From Candidatus Multivorans sp. (GTDB lineage Bacteria > Acidobacteriota > Thermoanaerobaculia > Multivoradales > Multivoraceae), in contig OZ244152.1 in NCBI GenBank assembly GCA_965216125.1, positions 4,427,947 through 4,491,946 of the forward strand: a DNA stretch of 64,000 bases, given 5' to 3'. Below, piece after piece: positions 7,678-64,000 of this stretch. Made by a program: the position numbers and the translations under genes. A model generated the notes under the pieces. That model was not told the DNA's origin and ran no database searches. It was given only the letters and a program-made list of their open reading frames with translations. Numbering within the stretch: position 1 is the stretch's first letter; every line of letters begins with the position of its first letter.

Positions 7678-7793
7678 CGGCAGCACCGTGACGGTGTAAG
7701 TGCCGCACCCCGGGCACTCACCAACTGCGAATCGGCGAACCGTCCGGCAGCGTTAGCTACGCCGCCGGCTCACCATCCCACCGGAACGAGTCG

Positions 7794-10625
<2,832 letters not shown>

Positions 10626-38703: not shown

Positions 38704-39687
38704 CTACTTCAAATGGCGGTCGAAGAAGTCGATCTCGGCGGTCATGGCCTTGTCGAGCCAGTCGCCGCTGTAGACGTCGTAGTGGCCCATGTCCCAGGCG
38801 TGGTATTCGACGGGTACGCGGCCGGAGAGGATTTGGGCGACTCGTTGGCCGTGCTCGCGGATGTCGAAGTAGTGCTCCTTCTTCGCGTCGATGATGATGG
38901 TCGGCGCGGTGATGAGGTGCGCGTGCTCGACGGGTGAGAACTTGGCGAAGCGTTCGTAGTACGGGCTGCCGGTGAGACCTTCCGGCTGGGGGCCGCCGAC
39001 CGGGACCGGCGCCACTTCGCCGCGGGCGCGCAGGATGGCCGTCCGGTGGAACCCCTTGAGACCGCCCGGCGCCACGACCAGGCCGGAGCGTTGGTCCATC
39101 GCGCCGACCTGGGCGGCCACCGCCTTGACGCGGCGGTCGTGGGCCGCGCGCCAGATGACGTGGCCGCCGCCGAAGCTCGAGCCCCAGATGCCGATCCGGG
39201 ACGGGTCCGCGTGCGGCTCGCCCTCGACGAACGTGATGGCCGCATCGATGTCCTCCTGCTGGTCCAGCGGGTCGACGAGCTGCCGGATCGCCTGCGCCTT
39301 GACCGTGACGTAGCCGTCCTCGTCGGGCTCGGGCATCTCGCCGCGGACGACGAGGCGCGAATCGCTCTCGCCCCAGCCGCGGTAGTCGAAGGCCAGCACC
39401 AGGTAGCCGGCGGCGGCAAAGCGCGGCGCGATACCGCGGTTCAGGTGCGCCTTCACGCCGCCCCAGCCGTGGCAGAGGACGATGGTCGGCAGCTTCTCGC
39501 CTTCGGCGGTCGCCTTCGGGTAGAAGACATCACCGGCCAGGCGCGTGCCGTCGCTCCAGAGTTCCACCGGCTTGCGGACGAGAGACGGATAGCCCTCGAC
39601 GTCCATCAACGCGCCGGCAGCCAGCGCCGGCGCGGCGGTCACGGCGGCGGCCAGGATTCCGGCCAGGGCCAGACCCCAGCGGTACAT
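38704..39687 (-). CDS. Secreted alpha/beta hydrolase (dienelactone hydrolase / S9-like). Only the C-terminal third of the 976-aa track ORF is real.
   Basis: Signal peptide MYRWGLALAGILAAAVTAAPALAAG, then GIWGSSFGGGH nucleophile elbow. The track ORF upstream of 39720 is an antisense shadow of the 39841 gene. Confidence 0.75.
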   Translation of the reverse strand: MYRWGLALAGILAAAVTAAPALAAGALMDVEGYPSLVRKPVELWSDGTRLAGDVFYPKATAEGEKLPTIVLCHGWGGVKAHLNRGIAPRFAAAGYLVLAFDYRGWGESDSRLVVRGEMPEPDEDGYVTVKAQAIRQLVDPLDQQEDIDAAITFVEGEPHADPSRIGIWGSSFGGGHVIWRAAHDRRVKAVAAQVGAMDQRSGLVVAPGGLKGFHRTAILRARGEVAPVPVGGPQPEGLTGSPYYERFAKFSPVEHAHLITAPTIIIDAKKEHYFDIREHGQRVAQILSGRVPVEYHAWDMGHYDVYSGDWLDKAMTAEIDFFDRHLK

Positions 39688-39840
39688 CTTCCGGGTCGTA
39701 CTCCCGATGTGATCGTGCATTGCCGCTCCTCCTGCAAAGTGCTCAGGGTCGTTTCCGCCGATGCTACCGGAGAGGGTTGCCATGAAGACAGGAGAGCCAA
39801 CCCGCGCCGCGACTTCACATTCGGAGTAAAGTCGCCAGCC

Positions 39841-42078
39841 GTGAGGCGCTTTCCCGCGGCGGCGACCGCCGCAACCCTGTTGCTGTGGGCCGCCGCGTCG
39901 GAGGCTCAAACCGCACGTCCAACCGCCTCGGCGATGACGATCGGCGAAGCGCCGGTGCTCGACGGCGAGGTTCTCGACGACCCGGTCTGGCAGGCCATCG
40001 AGCCAGCTTCGGGCCTCACCCAGACCCGGCCCTACGCCGGCGAACCCGGCACCGAGCGCACGGAAGTTCGGTTTGCGTTCACCGAGGACGTCCTCTTCGT
40101 CTCCGTGGTCTGTCATGACCGCGAACCCGACGGGATCGTCATCTCGGACAGCCGTCGCGACGCGCCGCTCAACGAGACGGACAGCTTCCAGGTCATCTTC
40201 GACACCTTCAAGGATGGCCGCAACGGCTTCGTGTTCGGCACCAACCCGGCCGGCATCGAGTACGACGGTCAGGTGGTCGAGGGCGGCTCCGGCATCTTCA
40301 GCGGCATGGGCGGCAGCAGCCGCTTCCGGGGCGGCTTCAGTACGGGGTTCAACCTGAACTGGGACGGCGCCTGGAACGTCGCCACACAGATCGGCGACTT
40401 CGGCTGGAGCGCCGAGTTCGCGATCCCCTTCCGCACCCTGCGCTACCCGCCGGGCGATGTACAGACCTGGGGTCTGAACTTCCAGCGCAACATCGCCCGC
40501 CACAAGGAAGTCGCCTTCTGGTCCGAACTCGAACGGAACCACGAACTGGACCGGCTGACCGACGGCGGCTCGCTCCAGGGCGTCGAGCCGCCGCCGCAGC
40601 GCAACCTGAAGCTGGTTCCCTACGCTCTGGGCGTCGGCCGTCGGCCGTCCGACGTGGACAGCGACAACGAGGCGGAATCCGATCTCGGCCTCGATATCAA
40701 GTTCAGCGTGACGCCGAGCCTGACCCTCGACCTGACCTACAACACGGACTTCGCCCAGGTCGAGGTCGACGAACAGCAGGTGAACCTCGACCGGTTCAAC
40801 CTGTTCTTCCCCGAGAAGCGGCCCTTCTTCCTCGAGAACGCCGGGTTGTTCACGGTCGGAGCGCGCTCGGGGGGAAGCCGCGCCTCGGCCCGGATCGACC
40901 TGTTCTTCAGCCGCCGGATCGGCATCGGCCCGAGCGGCGAACTGATTCCCATCGACTACGGCGGCCGCCTCTCCGGCAAGGCGGGCCGCTTCAACGTCGG
41001 GCTGCTCAACATGCAGACCGCCACGGTGGGAGGGCTGCACGGCAACAACTACGGCGTCGCCCGCATCAATCGCGAGTTGGGCGAACGCTCGAGCATCGGC
41101 GCGATCCTGGTCAGCCGCGAGGGAGTGGGCAGCCTGGCGCCGGAGAACGACACGAACCGCACCTTCGCCATCGACGGCCAGTGGGGAATCGGCGAGCACC
41201 ACACGATCGAGTCGTACGTCGCCCAGAGCGACACGCCGGGTCTCGAGGGCGACGACACGGCGATGCTCTTGAGCTACAACCTCGGCAAGCCGCAGTGGCG
41301 CGGCAGCCTCAGCTACTCCGAGGCGCGGGAGAACTTCAATCCGGAAGTAGGGTTCCTGTCCCGCACCGCCTTCCGTAACGCCTCCGTGTTCGGCATGCGC
41401 ACGATCCGGCCCAAGGCCCTCGCCGGCCTGCACGAGATCCGGCCGCACGTCTCCTACAGCGCGATCTGGGACTTCGAGGACTTCAAGGAGACGGACTACA
41501 CCCACATCGATGTCCACTGGGAGTGGCGCAACGGCTTCGAAGTCCACACCGGCGTCAACCTCACCGGTGAGGGCGTCAAGGAAACGTTCGAGATCGTCGA
41601 CGGCGCCGCCGTCGCGCCGGGCAGGTACGACCACAGCGAACTCCAGACCGTCTTTCAGACCAACCAGTCGAAGCCGGTCTCCGTCTACATCCGCAACACC
41701 ACCGGCGGGTTCTTCGGCGGCGACCGCAGCTCAACCAGTTTCGGGATGCTCGCCCGGCGCGGGGAACGGTTGACCTCCGACCTGTCCTGGGACCACAACG
41801 ACGTCGACCTGGCCGGGGGCTCTTTCCAGATCAACCTCGGCCGCCTGCGACTCACGTACTCGATCACGCCGCGGATGCTGGTCCAGGCCCTGGCCCAGTA
41901 CAACGATCAGTCGGACGTCGTCTCCACGAACTTCCGGTTCTCCTGGCTGCAGGACGCGAACACCGGGCTGTTCATCGTCTACAACGAGATCGACGAGCTC
42001 GGCCTGCGCGACCTCTTCGCGCGTCCGGACCGCAGCGTGATCGTCAAGTACAGCTACCTCTTCGACGTTCTCCATTGA
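39841..42078 (+). CDS. DUF5916-like outer-membrane protein with an N-terminal carbohydrate-binding (CBM9-like) domain. GTG start with signal peptide.
   Basis: Signal peptide RRFPAAATAATLLLWAAASEA, then a CBM9-like N-domain and a long beta-rich C-terminal region ending in an aromatic residue. Confidence 0.7.
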   Translation: MRRFPAAATAATLLLWAAASEAQTARPTASAMTIGEAPVLDGEVLDDPVWQAIEPASGLTQTRPYAGEPGTERTEVRFAFTEDVLFVSVVCHDREPDGIVISDSRRDAPLNETDSFQVIFDTFKDGRNGFVFGTNPAGIEYDGQVVEGGSGIFSGMGGSSRFRGGFSTGFNLNWDGAWNVATQIGDFGWSAEFAIPFRTLRYPPGDVQTWGLNFQRNIARHKEVAFWSELERNHELDRLTDGGSLQGVEPPPQRNLKLVPYALGVGRRPSDVDSDNEAESDLGLDIKFSVTPSLTLDLTYNTDFAQVEVDEQQVNLDRFNLFFPEKRPFFLENAGLFTVGARSGGSRASARIDLFFSRRIGIGPSGELIPIDYGGRLSGKAGRFNVGLLNMQTATVGGLHGNNYGVARINRELGERSSIGAILVSREGVGSLAPENDTNRTFAIDGQWGIGEHHTIESYVAQSDTPGLEGDDTAMLLSYNLGKPQWRGSLSYSEARENFNPEVGFLSRTAFRNASVFGMRTIRPKALAGLHEIRPHVSYSAIWDFEDFKETDYTHIDVHWEWRNGFEVHTGVNLTGEGVKETFEIVDGAAVAPGRYDHSELQTVFQTNQSKPVSVYIRNTTGGFFGGDRSSTSFGMLARRGERLTSDLSWDHNDVDLAGGSFQINLGRLRLTYSITPRMLVQALAQYNDQSDVVSTNFRFSWLQDANTGLFIVYNEIDELGLRDLFARPDRSVIVKYSYLFDVLH

Positions 42079-59508: not shown

Positions 59509-61455
59509 ATGCCGGATAGCGCCGTCAAACGCCTCGCAGCACTAGCCTTTCTCGCCTGCTCCGCCGCGGCCGCTCAGGAACCCGTCGAGTGGCGCCACTA
59601 CGCCGCCGACCGAGCCAGCACGAAATACTCGCCGGCGGCGCAGATCGACGCGTCGAACGTGTCGAAGCTCGAGGTCGCGTGGCGCTCGGTCACACCCGAC
59701 GGCCGCGTTGACACGAAGGCGCCGGCCGGCGACCTGAAGGGCACGCCGCTGATGGTGAACGGCACCCTCTATGCCGTGTCGGCCCTGAACCTCGTCAGCG
59801 CCATCAACCCCGAGACCGGCGAGGAGCTCTGGACCTACGATCCGTTGGCCTACGAACGCGGCGTCCCGACCCACGGCGGCTTCACCCAGCGCGGCATCGA
59901 GTTCTGGGAGCACCGCGGCATGCAGCGGATCGTGCTGGTCACCGGTACCCATCAACTCGTGTCTCTGGACGCCAGGACCGGCAAGCCCGACCTCGAGTTC
60001 GGCGAAGCGGGCATGGTCGACATGCGCGGCGACATCGGCCGGCCGGACCAGATGCGCCAGACCGGCGCCAACTCGCCCGGCATCGTCTGCGGCGACACCA
60101 TTCTCATGGGCATGACGATCATGGACTTCTCCTTGACGCAGGAGATGCCGGCCGGCCATATCCGCGGCTACGACATCCGCACCGGCCAGAAGAAGTGGGT
60201 CTTCCACACCGTTCCGCAGGGCGGCGAGCCTGGCGCGGAGACCTGGCACGATGAGTCCTGGCGCTACTCCGGCAACAGCAACGTGTGGTCGTGGATGAGC
60301 TGCGACGACGATACGGGCTGGATCTACTTCGGCACCGGCACGCCGACCAGCGACTACTACGGCGGCCACCGCCACGGCGACAATCTCTACGCCGAGAGCC
60401 TGGTCGCCATCGACACCGCGACGGGCGAGAAGAAGTGGCACTTCCAGGCGGTGCGGCACGGCCTCTGGGACTACGACTTCCCCTGCGCCCCGATCCTGCT
60501 CGACATCGAGGTCGACGGGGAGCGCATCGAGGCGGTGGCCCAGGTCAGCAAGCAGGCGTTCACCTACGTCTTCGACCGCAAGACCGGCAAGCCGGTGTGG
60601 CCCATCGAGGAGCGCAAGGTGCCGGAGAGCACCGTCCCCGGCGAGTGGACCGCAAGCATGCAGCCCTTCCCCACCAAGCCGCCGCCGTTCGACCGCCAGG
60701 GCGTGCGCGAGAGCGATCTCATCGACTTCACACCGGAACTGAACGCCCGGGCGGTCGAGAGCTACCGCAAGACCCTGCTTGGAGGCCCGCTGTTCACGCC
60801 GCCGATCGTGGCCGGCAACAACGGCAAGGCGGCGATGGCGCAACTACCCGGTCAGGCCGGCGGCGCAAACTGGGGCGGCGCCGCCGTCGACCCGGAAAGC
60901 GGTGTCCTGTTCGTGCCGTCGCAGACCCGGCTCGGCACGATGTCCCTGAACCCGCCGACCGGACGCCAGCGCTCCGACCGCGACTACCTGCCGGGATTCA
61001 CGTTCCCCGCCGGCCCCGAGGGCCTGCCGCTGACCAAGCCGCCCTGGAGCCGCCTCACCGCGATCGATCTCAACCGAGGCGAAATCCTGTGGCAGACGCC
61101 GCTCGGGGACGGACCGCGCAACCATCCGGCGCTCGTGGACCTGGAGCTCGGTCCGCTCGGCGCCTGGCCGCTCGGCGGCCTGACTCCCGGCTGGCCGATG
61201 GCGACCCGGACCCTCGTGTTCGTCGTCACCAGCGAACAGGAGCCCGGCAACTACGCTCCGCGCGGGCCGTCGACCGGTTTCCTCTACGCCTTCGACAAGG
61301 CGACCGGCGAGGAGGTCTGGCGGACGGAGTTGCCCGACACCCCGGGCGGCGGACCGATGACCTATGTCAGCGCCGGACGTCAGTTCATCGTTGTGCCCGT
61401 CGGCGATCGCGGCCAGGAGCATTCCCTGGTCGCGTACGCGTTGCCGACGAACTAG
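59509..61455 (+). CDS. PQQ-dependent dehydrogenase (quinoprotein alcohol/sugar dehydrogenase), secreted
   Basis: Signal peptide, eight-bladed propeller W-motifs. Strong Shine-Dalgarno AAGGAGGA upstream. Confidence 0.9.
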   Translation: MPDSAVKRLAALAFLACSAAAAQEPVEWRHYAADRASTKYSPAAQIDASNVSKLEVAWRSVTPDGRVDTKAPAGDLKGTPLMVNGTLYAVSALNLVSAINPETGEELWTYDPLAYERGVPTHGGFTQRGIEFWEHRGMQRIVLVTGTHQLVSLDARTGKPDLEFGEAGMVDMRGDIGRPDQMRQTGANSPGIVCGDTILMGMTIMDFSLTQEMPAGHIRGYDIRTGQKKWVFHTVPQGGEPGAETWHDESWRYSGNSNVWSWMSCDDDTGWIYFGTGTPTSDYYGGHRHGDNLYAESLVAIDTATGEKKWHFQAVRHGLWDYDFPCAPILLDIEVDGERIEAVAQVSKQAFTYVFDRKTGKPVWPIEERKVPESTVPGEWTASMQPFPTKPPPFDRQGVRESDLIDFTPELNARAVESYRKTLLGGPLFTPPIVAGNNGKAAMAQLPGQAGGANWGGAAVDPESGVLFVPSQTRLGTMSLNPPTGRQRSDRDYLPGFTFPAGPEGLPLTKPPWSRLTAIDLNRGEILWQTPLGDGPRNHPALVDLELGPLGAWPLGGLTPGWPMATRTLVFVVTSEQEPGNYAPRGPSTGFLYAFDKATGEEVWRTELPDTPGGGPMTYVSAGRQFIVVPVGDRGQEHSLVAYALPTN

Positions 61456-62882
61456 TCCGCCACTGCAGCCGTCTCCCGGCAACCCTCGGGAAACGCGTAC
61501 AAGTCCGTGATCGCCGGCGCCGGAACGCCGGGTTCGTTGACGTACCGCCGCAACCTCCCGAGCACCGAGTCCCTCACAGTGACCTCGTACCCCAGGTCCG
61601 TCGTCGAGGCGCCGAACACCCAGACGTTGCCGTTGTTCGAGCAGCCCTTCAGCACCTTGATCAGAATCTCCCAATTGTCCGGTTCGAAGAACCAGAACAT
61701 ACCCGAGTCGCCCGTAGACTCCTCGACCGTTTGCGCCACGCCGGACCTGCCATCTGGTGTTCGCCATACGGCCCTGACTTCGTACCGGGATTCCTGCAGG
61801 CACAGAGTCTCGGCGCCCGGCACACACTCGCCCGTCTGCGGCGGCTCGCCTTTCGGGGCGAATGCAGGACGGATGACCTTGACGACCCGGTTCCTTGCAA
61901 TGAGCGATCCCCCCACGTGGGCGTCCCCCTCAAGATAGCGGACCTCTTCGTCTTGCGCGAGTGCGATCAGTTCCTGCTTCAGCCTCGCCGCGCCCCAATC
62001 GGGATTCGAGTACGCGAGATTCGTTGCGTAGGCCGCAAGAACCGCCGTCGCGTGGGAAGTGCTCATGTCCGGCGACTCGACATAGATGGTGTGAGGCGCA
62101 AACACTCCGTCCGCCCGAATCGCGCCGGTCGCGAAGCTCATGCCGGTCGCGGAGGGCTCCGGGGCGAGGGCCCCGACCCACAGGGCCTTGTCGAGACCGA
62201 CACCGGAATGCGCGATGTAGTCGCGCAGAAGGCCACAAGGAGGCTCCCACCCCCGTTCTTCCTGCGGATCGAAATCGTCGCAGAAAAGGGGCAGCCCGTC
62301 GCGTCTCCGGGAAATGTTCTCCACCGAGGCGACAAACAACGTGTTCTGATTCTGCATCCAGGCAGCAACAGCGCGCGCGTCCTTGTCAAACGGCCGGCCG
62401 TTCTCGAGAAACCAGTATTCATACCACCTCGGCGCGTACGTGCCCGTGTCGCTGGTGGCGGTCCAGAAGATCCCGCCGCCGCGTCGTAGCGCGTGTCTGA
62501 TGAATCCGTTCCCGACAAACAACCTGATCTCTCGACCGCCGAGTTCGTACCGGCCGTACCCAATGGTCTGAACCAGACGCGCCTGATTCGTGTTCGCCAG
62601 GAACGTTCTCGTGATCCGTTCCCCATGTTCGTCAGGCTCGAAGCCTTGTCCGTCGACCATCGACACCGCGACAGGGCCCGAATCGTCCGCCAGCCGATCG
62701 ACGAAGTCGTCGTCTATGAGCACGGGGACGTGTGACGAAGTCGACTCGACCCCGGCCGGCCGCTCGCCGTCCGCTCCCGGACCAGCGTAGGCAGCGCCGA
62801 CACAAGCGAAACCCGCCAACATTGTGGGCAGAGCCCAACACGTGCGACAAGCCTTCAGCCCGACGGGTTCACTTAAAGGCAC
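61452..62882 (-). CDS. Secreted protein with N-terminal hydrolase-like domain (weak subtilase-like D/H/S spacing) and a ~110-aa conserved C-terminal domain shared with the next gene
   Basis: The C-terminal domain ETLCLQESRYEVRAVW...NWEILIKVLKGC...VWVFGASTTDLG...PAPAITD...FPEGC is about 60 % identical to the C-terminus of the 63196 gene. Confidence 0.7.
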   Translation of the reverse strand: MPLSEPVGLKACRTCWALPTMLAGFACVGAAYAGPGADGERPAGVESTSSHVPVLIDDDFVDRLADDSGPVAVSMVDGQGFEPDEHGERITRTFLANTNQARLVQTIGYGRYELGGREIRLFVGNGFIRHALRRGGGIFWTATSDTGTYAPRWYEYWFLENGRPFDKDARAVAAWMQNQNTLFVASVENISRRRDGLPLFCDDFDPQEERGWEPPCGLLRDYIAHSGVGLDKALWVGALAPEPSATGMSFATGAIRADGVFAPHTIYVESPDMSTSHATAVLAAYATNLAYSNPDWGAARLKQELIALAQDEEVRYLEGDAHVGGSLIARNRVVKVIRPAFAPKGEPPQTGECVPGAETLCLQESRYEVRAVWRTPDGRSGVAQTVEESTGDSGMFWFFEPDNWEILIKVLKGCSNNGNVWVFGASTTDLGYEVTVRDSVLGRLRRYVNEPGVPAPAITDLYAFPEGCRETAAVAD

Positions 62883-62963
62883 AAGGAGATCCTAGCTAAG
62901 CTAAGCTAGCAGTTGCCGAGTCGCCGACCGAGAGGGACCGGGGCCGCCGAAACGCACACCGTA

Positions 62964-63195
62964 TCACCGCCGCTTCGACAGCCGGGCGTCCGGCGGGTCG
63001 CCGATCCACTCCGCCCCCTGCTCCCAGCCGTCGTCGAAGACCGTGTCGCGAATCGGCCGGCGCCGCAGCGGGCCGTGGCGTCCCAGGGGCTTGCCGATCG
63101 TGATCGTCAGTGACAGCTCGACGTCGTCCGGAACCTCCAGAATCTCACGCAGCTCGTCCGCCACGGCGTGATGCCACCCGCTGTAGCAGGCGCCG
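62964..63195 (-). pseudogene. Nitroreductase-family C-terminal remnant (~75 codons), truncated at its 5' side by the neighbouring gene
   Basis: NGACYSGWHHAVADELREILEVPDDVELSLTITIGKPLGRHGPLRRRPIRDTVFDDGW matches the nitroreductase C-terminal consensus. Upstream, the frame runs into the 63196 gene in another frame. Confidence 0.5.
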
Positions 63196-64000
63196 TTACC
63201 GCGTGCAGCCCTCCGGAAACGCCGTCCCGTCCGTGATCGCCGGCGCCGGATGGCCCGGTTCGTTGCGGTACTCCTTCACCACACCCGTGACCGTGTCCGT
63301 CACGCGGATTGAGTTGCCCAGGTCCGTGGTCGAAGCGCCGTACACCCACACGTGACCGTTCATCGCACACCCGTCCAGTACCTTGATCAGCACTTCCCAG
63401 TTCTCCCGGTTGAAGAACGTGAACAACCCCGAGTCGTTCGTGCCCTCATGGACCACGCTGCCGGCGCCGCTTTCGCCGGCGGCCGTCCACCAGGCCACAT
63501 GGACCGCGTAGCGGGAATCCTGAAGGCAGAGCGTCTCCGCGTCCGACACGCAGGCGCCCGCCGGATCGCTCGCCTCGACCAGGAACTTCCGTGACGCCGT
63601 GGACTCGTTCTCGCCGTCGCTCACCCACAGGGTGACCTCGTAGAAGCCGGGTTCCGACCACGCGTGCTCAGGCCTGCGACCCCGCGAACTCGCCCCATCC
63701 CCGAACTCCCACCGGCGCGTCAGCACCTTGCCGGTACTCGTGTCCGTGAAACGCACAGGCGAACCGCCAACAGCCCGGCAAAGATCAGCCCCGCACGCCG
63801 CACCGCTGAAGTCGAAGGCCGCCATGGGGGCGCCGTCGTCGTCATCGTGAATCGTCCCGACCACTTGCAACACCGAGCCGCCGCCGGCCAGCGTGGCGTT
63901 CGTCGGGTTGCGAAGCGTCAACGTGAAGGTCTCCGACTGCGGCTCGTACACCCCGTCGTCCGTTACCGGAACGCGGATCTGGCGCACTGCCGTCGACTGG
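63196..64000 (-). CDS. Extracellular multidomain protein (Calx-beta fragment, PKD domain, shared C-terminal domain). The 5' end lies beyond the window.
   Basis: Calx-beta end LTLRNPTNATLAGGGSVLQVVGTIHDDDD. PKD motif WEFGDG...PGFYEVTLWVSDG. C-terminal domain paralogous to the 61452 gene. The frame is open to position 64000. Confidence 0.75.
   Translation of the reverse strand, partial: QSTAVRQIRVPVTDDGVYEPQSETFTLTLRNPTNATLAGGGSVLQVVGTIHDDDDGAPMAAFDFSGAACGADLCRAVGGSPVRFTDTSTGKVLTRRWEFGDGASSRGRRPEHAWSEPGFYEVTLWVSDGENESTASRKFLVEASDPAGACVSDAETLCLQDSRYAVHVAWWTAAGESGAGSVVHEGTNDSGLFTFFNRENWEVLIKVLDGCAMNGHVWVYGASTTDLGNSIRVTDTVTGVVKEYRNEPGHPAPAITDGTAFPEGCTR

Follow-up and report, generated by a model that had tools for sequence, protein, structure and literature searches.

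A widespread C-terminal domain without a database name on putatively exported proteins of Candidatus Multivorans sp. and other Acidobacteriota

Accessory terminal modules on secreted proteins are already a familiar kind of thing. The type A sorting domain of the type IX secretion system (T9SS; PF18962, TIGR04183) has an all-beta fold and forms the extreme C-terminal end of many Sec-exported proteins in a genome; its cargo includes peptidases, glycosidases and adhesins carrying PKD, fn3 or cadherin domains. SLH domains and dockerin-cohesin pairs stand at the ends, often as repeats, of many exoproteins of a genome that are otherwise unrelated, and tether their cargo to a common envelope component or scaffold, and both T9SS sorting domains and dockerins are known surface-attachment devices. 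The pre-peptidase C-terminal (PPC) domain (PF04151) and the collagen-binding domains of ColG and ColH, which are all-beta and about 110-120 residues long, stand at the C-terminus of secreted peptidases in one or two copies, often after a PKD domain. Signals of the PEP-CTERM/exosortase type take about 25 residues, in which a motif and a transmembrane helix are followed by a basic tail, and are found at the C-terminus of many paralogues with heterogeneous cargo in one genome. Here a further C-terminal domain is described, which is shared by two adjacent genes, called A and B, in a stretch of 64,000 nucleotides (the window) from Candidatus Multivorans sp. (contig OZ244152.1, positions 4,427,947 to 4,491,946, forward strand), and which may serve to bind its carriers to the cell surface.

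The domain resembles the T9SS type A domain in its predicted fold class, extreme C-terminal position, number of carriers per genome and kind of cargo, and the PPC and collagen-binding domains in length, copy number and a PKD neighbour, which was observed here. It is placed and repeated like SLH domains and dockerins; unlike these, it is predicted to be all-beta instead of helical or EF-hand-like, and it has no sequence relation to either. With PEP-CTERM signals it has the C-terminal position, the many paralogues and the heterogeneous cargo in common, but it is a soluble module of 118 residues that ends 0-8 residues after its last Cys and has no hydrophobic helix.

The domain copies of genes A and B

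Gene A (61452..62882, minus strand) was an open reading frame (ORF) of 476 codons when read from the first possible start, a GTG at 62882, through the stop codon. The visible 3' part of gene B (63196..64000, minus strand) was open from 63999 to the stop codon at 63196-63198, and the ORF continued past the window end. The initial annotation of this DNA, made from the sequence alone, had proposed that the two neighbours end in a common domain of about 60% amino-acid identity. This was borne out by the C-terminal 118 residues, which aligned without gaps with 73 of 118 positions identical (62%; BLASTP E 8e-48), and the consensus pattern given for the domain was present in both copies. In gene A the domain occupied residues 351-468 (61479..61832, minus strand), as delimited by BLASTP, the predicted structure and four conserved Cys, and was followed by a tail of eight residues (RETAAVAD) and the stop codon at 61452-61454. 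The gene B copy (63205..63558, minus strand) was placed by its BLASTP alignment with the gene A copy and was followed only by Thr-Arg, so the two proteins ended in ...FPEGCRETAAVAD and ...FPEGCTR, respectively. Nothing outside the domain could be aligned between the two proteins by BLASTP, as had also been claimed, and tblastn across the entire window gave these two copies only.

The nucleotide identity had been put at 75-80%, which was too high. Over 354 codon-aligned bases it was 69%, with just 60% at third positions, which rules out both a young duplication and gene conversion as the source of the similarity and shows genes A and B to be old paralogues under purifying selection.

A confident all-beta model of the domain was obtained with AlphaFold (predicted local distance difference test, pLDDT, 89.7; predicted template modelling score, pTM, 0.85), with nine strands and two one-turn helices. 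In an alignment of 520 distinct domain copies, all four Cys were present in 446. Cys1 and Cys2 lay eight residues apart at the domain N-terminus, Cys3 in a KVLDGC motif and Cys4 0-3 residues from the end. One subfamily, on Spondin_N/fn3 proteins, had KVLDGR in place of this motif and ended in ...AF, being without Cys3 and Cys4, and over the alignment copies without Cys3 tended to lack Cys4 as well (odds ratio 14, p 4e-6). Since Cys3 and Cys4 were lost together, two disulfides, Cys1-Cys2 and Cys3-Cys4, are supported and would hold the domain. In addition, Arg16, Asn53, Glu55, Lys59, Asp88 and Asp110 were conserved at 97-100% in the same 520 copies, on unrelated cargo, which would fit one shared binding partner.

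A probable Sec signal peptide (62784..62822, minus strand) was read from the gene A sequence beginning at Met21. The N-terminus there reads MLAGFACVGAAYA directly before GPG, and orthologues likewise keep a hydrophobic N-terminus that ends in AFA or AYA. The real length of gene A is probably 456 codons from Met21; the database protein P0314, which is 98% identical to gene A, has the 456-residue form beginning at that Met, and an exact look-up of the 476-residue form returned no record. Of 139 database proteins beginning with Met, 93 had N-termini that looked like signal peptides when judged by a crude rule of hydrophobicity, many of them textbook examples. Taken together, the cysteines, the conservation and the N-termini would indicate Sec export and an oxidising compartment.

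Size of the family and its relation to known domains

The initial annotation had kept in view that the domain might be confined to these two paralogues, a possibility that the searches removed. A word-indexed search gave 33 relatives, and an exhaustive HMMER search with a profile made from 13 sequences gave 10,136 representatives of 50%-identity clusters at E<=1e-3 (4,325 at E<=1e-30). In a scan that took a single genome for each species, the number of confirmed genomic loci exceeded 504. The best 80 of these matches, corresponding to the 71 distinct loci on which the locus-based counts given here rest, were all in Thermoanaerobaculia, Holophagales or metagenome-assembled genomes (MAGs) of Acidobacteriota. 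They contained 135 domain-bearing ORFs, with two to five such genes in 46 loci, and at least 25 distinct domain genes could be counted in one related genome of 5.06 Mb, a run of six neighbours among them. The domain genes form tandem arrays, since six consecutive large genes of 1,215-1,966 codons within 34 kb of OZ242222.1 (4049919-4083832; L068, L027 and L006) all end in the domain. Carriers were named 'hypothetical protein', 'PKD domain-containing protein' or 'VCBS repeat-containing protein' in their sources, and a literature search found no paper on Candidatus Multivorans or on the domain in the collection searched. Domain relatives were absent from the viral contigs searched and from 72,556 plasmids, and carriage by phages or plasmids was rejected.

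The domain had been described as unrecognised, and it stayed so. No Pfam or NCBIfam match at E<=1 was obtained in the shared domain of gene A or B, none recurred even at E<=10 among 34 diverse copies (mutually less than 60% identical), and a profile of these 34 copies gave nothing but noise against PDB sequences. Weak matches to NCBIfam NF058629 (PA_0111/PP_0108 redox-active disulfide protein family), at E 0.02-0.2, were seen for gene B residues 167-228 and two of the 34 copies, and are probably noise.

Known terminal domains were rejected one after another. The hidden Markov models (HMMs) of the T9SS type A (PF18962/TIGR04183) and type B (TIGR04131/PF13585) sorting domains matched neither genes A and B nor the 34 copies, at E<=1 and E<=10 respectively for type A, and hhalign of the domain against an alignment of nine genuine T9SS type A tails gave a probability of 0.8%. 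The small Ig-like beta-sandwich fold of T9SS sorting domains was tested for and not found, nor was the domain restricted to a single copy at the extreme C-terminus as these are, with multi-copy, N-terminal and stand-alone cases on record. For PEP-CTERM (TIGR02595), neither a PEP motif nor a hydrophobic helix nor an Arg-rich tail was present at the C-termini of A and B, and NCBIfam gave no match. The claim that the domain does not resemble T9SS or PEP-CTERM signals was correct. The PPC/collagen-binding domain (PF04151) was matched neither by HMM nor by fold. Carbohydrate-binding modules and lectins, which had been named as the kind of known family the domain might turn out to be, gave no sequence or fold match to a characterised family, as did any other family in the Pfam, NCBIfam and PDB sequence searches. 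As far as these tools tell, the domain is a new, very large family, unnamed in the databases searched and without detectable relative in sequence or fold.

Position, cargo and exchange of the domain

Of the 132 ORFs in the 71 loci for which a stop codon was present, 129 ended within 35 residues past the domain, mostly within 0-2, and 129 of the 150 best database matches ended within 10 residues after it. Two or four copies of the domain were carried by 14 of the 135 ORFs and by all 150 best database matches, a set in which the summing of scores gives an advantage to multi-copy proteins. In about 7% of the proteins sampled, more than 50 residues followed the last copy. At least 12 cluster representatives (e.g. 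P0038, P0072, P0088 and P0118) consisted of a signal peptide, a tandem pair of domains and then a large C-terminal region, and such N-terminal pairs preceded 430-970 residues of cargo. Small stand-alone proteins made up of a signal peptide and a single divergent domain copy were also encoded (L024:13039-13599 and L028:12497-13495).

That one module ends proteins of different cargo, as the initial annotation had put it from two examples, was strongly borne out. No Pfam family was common to all of 45 full-length carriers; PKD was the most frequent (26), followed by Calx-beta (19), Spondin_N (9), fn3 (9), M14 carboxypeptidase (8) and S8 peptidase (5), the S8 subtilase coming with a P-domain. Trypsin, reprolysin, purple acid phosphatase, arylsulfotransferase, glucose/sorbosone dehydrogenase (GSDH), GH92, cadherin, Big_9, Big_2 and FG-GAP were found in addition, and the peptidases spanned four families (M14, S8, trypsin and reprolysin).

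Gene B carries the most frequent of these cargo families. Its PKD domain (63580..63771, minus strand; PF18911 E 5.9e-15, PF00801 E 1.9e-12) adjoins the shared domain on the upstream side and passes both Pfam thresholds (55.5 bits vs 27 and 47.4 bits vs 23.5). Upstream of it lies the C-terminal part of a possible Calx-beta domain (63892..63990, minus strand), cut by the window edge and below the cut-off (PF03160 E 0.0028, 18.1 bits); of the two domain types assigned earlier to this protein, PKD was confirmed and Calx-beta reached only this level. In related genomes, dozens of paralogues had 3' ends that were 73-81% identical in DNA to parts of 63187-63996, which covers PKD and the shared domain, and the two domains seem to travel as one unit, or cassette. 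Matches of the cassette were seen at, for example, L071:9814-10354 and L006:9814-10346, and the cargo upstream of it differs among the paralogues.

The gene A protein had been described as hydrolase-like in its N-terminal part. Its cargo is a divergent subtilase-like serine peptidase domain (61872..62723, minus strand), with a subtilase fold and Asp77, His86, Asn189 and Ser276 (476-residue numbering) in the Asp-His-(Asn)-Ser order of Peptidase S8. No Pfam family matched gene A at E<=1, the PF00082 threshold not being reached, and among the protease homologues only P0339 passed PF00082 (26.4 bits vs 21.8), so gene A represents a divergent subtilase subfamily. Relative to the syntenic orthologue in L001, the domain was 67% and the cargo 55% identical, the domain being the slower-evolving part. 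The same comparison (61833-62882 with L001:8834-10369) gave 55% protein identity for the protease domain, next to flanking genes of about 91% DNA identity, and third-position GC was 0.75 in the gene A protease vs 0.82-0.93 in the neighbouring genes. The protease may be either fast-evolving or recently replaced.

A search with the protease domain gave 52 homologues with cargo 44-59% identical, whose termini fell into four classes. The acidobacterial members ended in the shared domain. At least 15 others ended in the T9SS type A sorting domain PF18962 at the same position, with 32.6-36.7 bits vs the cut-off of 27 in the three that were checked. About 10 had nothing C-terminal of the protease and a dockerin-like module between signal peptide and protease, for which PF00404 gave 18-22.4 bits, just below the 22.9 cut-off, with nearly the whole model covered; in the P0322-P0332 lineage this module, of EF-hand type, sits in that place. 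The fourth class, from MAGs of Gammaproteobacteria, had an unrelated N-terminal extension of 100-260 residues and no C-terminal domain. Among the sampled proteins none paired the shared domain with a T9SS tail, and an ad hoc model of limited sensitivity, built from 15 closely related T9SS tails, detected no tail of this type in the window or in 1.38 Mb of carrier loci.

The window was syntenic with Candidatus Multivorans chromosomes (Acidobacteriota, Thermoanaerobaculia), the flanking genes being about 91% identical to theirs in DNA. Between genes A and B, at 62967-63194 (minus strand), lay a 3' remnant of a nitroreductase gene (residues 175-250, 89% identical), which 16 related loci, the closest relative L001 among them, have in nearly complete form (residues 25-250 at least). 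Since the remnant starts directly after the stop codon of gene B, this genome has a rearrangement or insertion of its own where the domain cassette ends. On the plus strand, SecA (7692-10622), a DUF5916 protein (38938-42075) and a pyrroloquinoline quinone (PQQ)-dependent dehydrogenase (59509-61452) were encoded, the last of which is convergent with gene A and overlaps its end by four bases. Genes of acyl-CoA and CoA-transferase metabolism were also present, and the rest of the window was housekeeping.

Possible functions of the domain

The reading to which we tentatively incline is that of an autonomous binding module, by which carriers would be retained on a ligand that they share in the cell envelope or matrix. 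The domain would be an all-beta, extracellular, non-catalytic targeting module of about 118 residues, one copy of it in each of genes A and B; in Thermoanaerobaculia it regularly closes dozens of putatively Sec-exported proteins in each genome. After export it would bind a single ligand, the same for all carriers, which most likely belongs to the envelope of the producer itself or to the surrounding matrix. Unrelated enzymes and adhesin-like proteins would in this way stay at the cell surface, and extra tandem copies would raise avidity. The same job is done by T9SS sorting-domain-dependent surface attachment, dockerin-cohesin pairs and SLH domains, to none of which the domain is related. Because a T9SS sorting domain and a dockerin-like module can replace it on the gene A protease family, the common denominator may be the tethering of exported proteins; because tandem, N-terminal and stand-alone copies exist, the domain probably works alone and independent of the chain end. 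Anchoring or binding would fit these arrangements better than an export signal. Three points speak against a binding module. No ligand or receptor candidate was identified for the domain; its near-absolute C-terminal position is stricter than usual for binding modules and is what is expected of a sorting domain; and the signal-peptide calls on the carriers are heuristic.

The initial annotation had suggested a sorting, anchoring or binding function in analogy with T9SS. The analogy is reasonable, because high copy number, heterogeneous cargo, terminal position and replacement by a T9SS domain are hallmarks of sorting domains, and dozens of paralogues per genome with T9SS-like cargo, members of the same protease family in other lineages that have a genuine T9SS sorting domain in precisely this place, and the carrier DNA without T9SS-type tails, within the limits of the model used, would all suit a folded C-terminal secretion or sorting domain. 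Such a domain would be read by an outer-membrane translocon or sortase-like enzyme of Acidobacteriota and perhaps later be removed or modified, as a counterpart of T9SS. We regard this as unlikely, with tandem and quadruple copies, N-terminal pairs and stand-alone proteins hard to reconcile with a terminal signal, and with neither sequence nor fold related to T9SS sorting domains. Co-occurring machinery, which the initial annotation had thought worth looking for, was not seen either in the window, where SecA is among the housekeeping genes, or on clustering 717 called genes from the 71 loci. The recurrent neighbours there were the housekeeping genes of one syntenic locus (succinate dehydrogenase, MatE, tetratricopeptide repeat (TPR), sigma-70, nitroreductase and others). 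Sorting machinery is frequently encoded elsewhere in the genome than its cargo. It is similarly doubtful that the domain is the address tag of an undescribed export or surface-attachment pathway of Acidobacteriota and other uncultured bacteria, with an origin independent of T9SS and its own receptor or processing enzyme.

A substrate-targeting module, in the manner of carbohydrate-binding modules or of the collagen-binding domain in clostridial collagenases, would place enzymes on their substrate by attaching to an external polymer such as exopolysaccharide, detritus or host matrix. The likeness to the collagenase architecture agrees with it; it is improbable all the same, because the carrier enzymes have such different substrates. 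A passive structural element without a specific ligand, be it a stabilising cap, a spacer, an oligomerisation domain or a removable pro-domain like PPC, would suit the compact, disulfide-locked fold that is predicted, and gammaproteobacterial homologues without a C-terminal domain imply that folding of the cargo does not need it, but it is very unlikely given six polar residues that hardly vary across hundreds of paralogues, secreted copies that stand alone, and the repeated swap for known targeting modules, which points to a specific interaction.

A binding module that keeps exoproteins at the surface would bear on a subject which, to our knowledge, is poorly understood in Acidobacteriota, namely protein secretion and surface display. 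The domain occurs in more than 10,000 sequence clusters and, it seems, in dozens of exported proteins per genome, and has neither name nor structure nor function in Pfam, NCBIfam or PDB. Defining it would improve the annotation of secretomes in Thermoanaerobaculia and related uncultured bacteria, since it would mark proteins that act outside the cell. That it is exchanged in nature for a T9SS sorting domain or a dockerin-like module within a single protease family gives a clear functional hypothesis. If the domain did tag an undescribed secretion or attachment pathway, folded sorting domains at the C-terminus would be of two kinds, this one having evolved independently of that of T9SS. It offers a concrete handle on how Acidobacteriota keep or direct their exoproteins.

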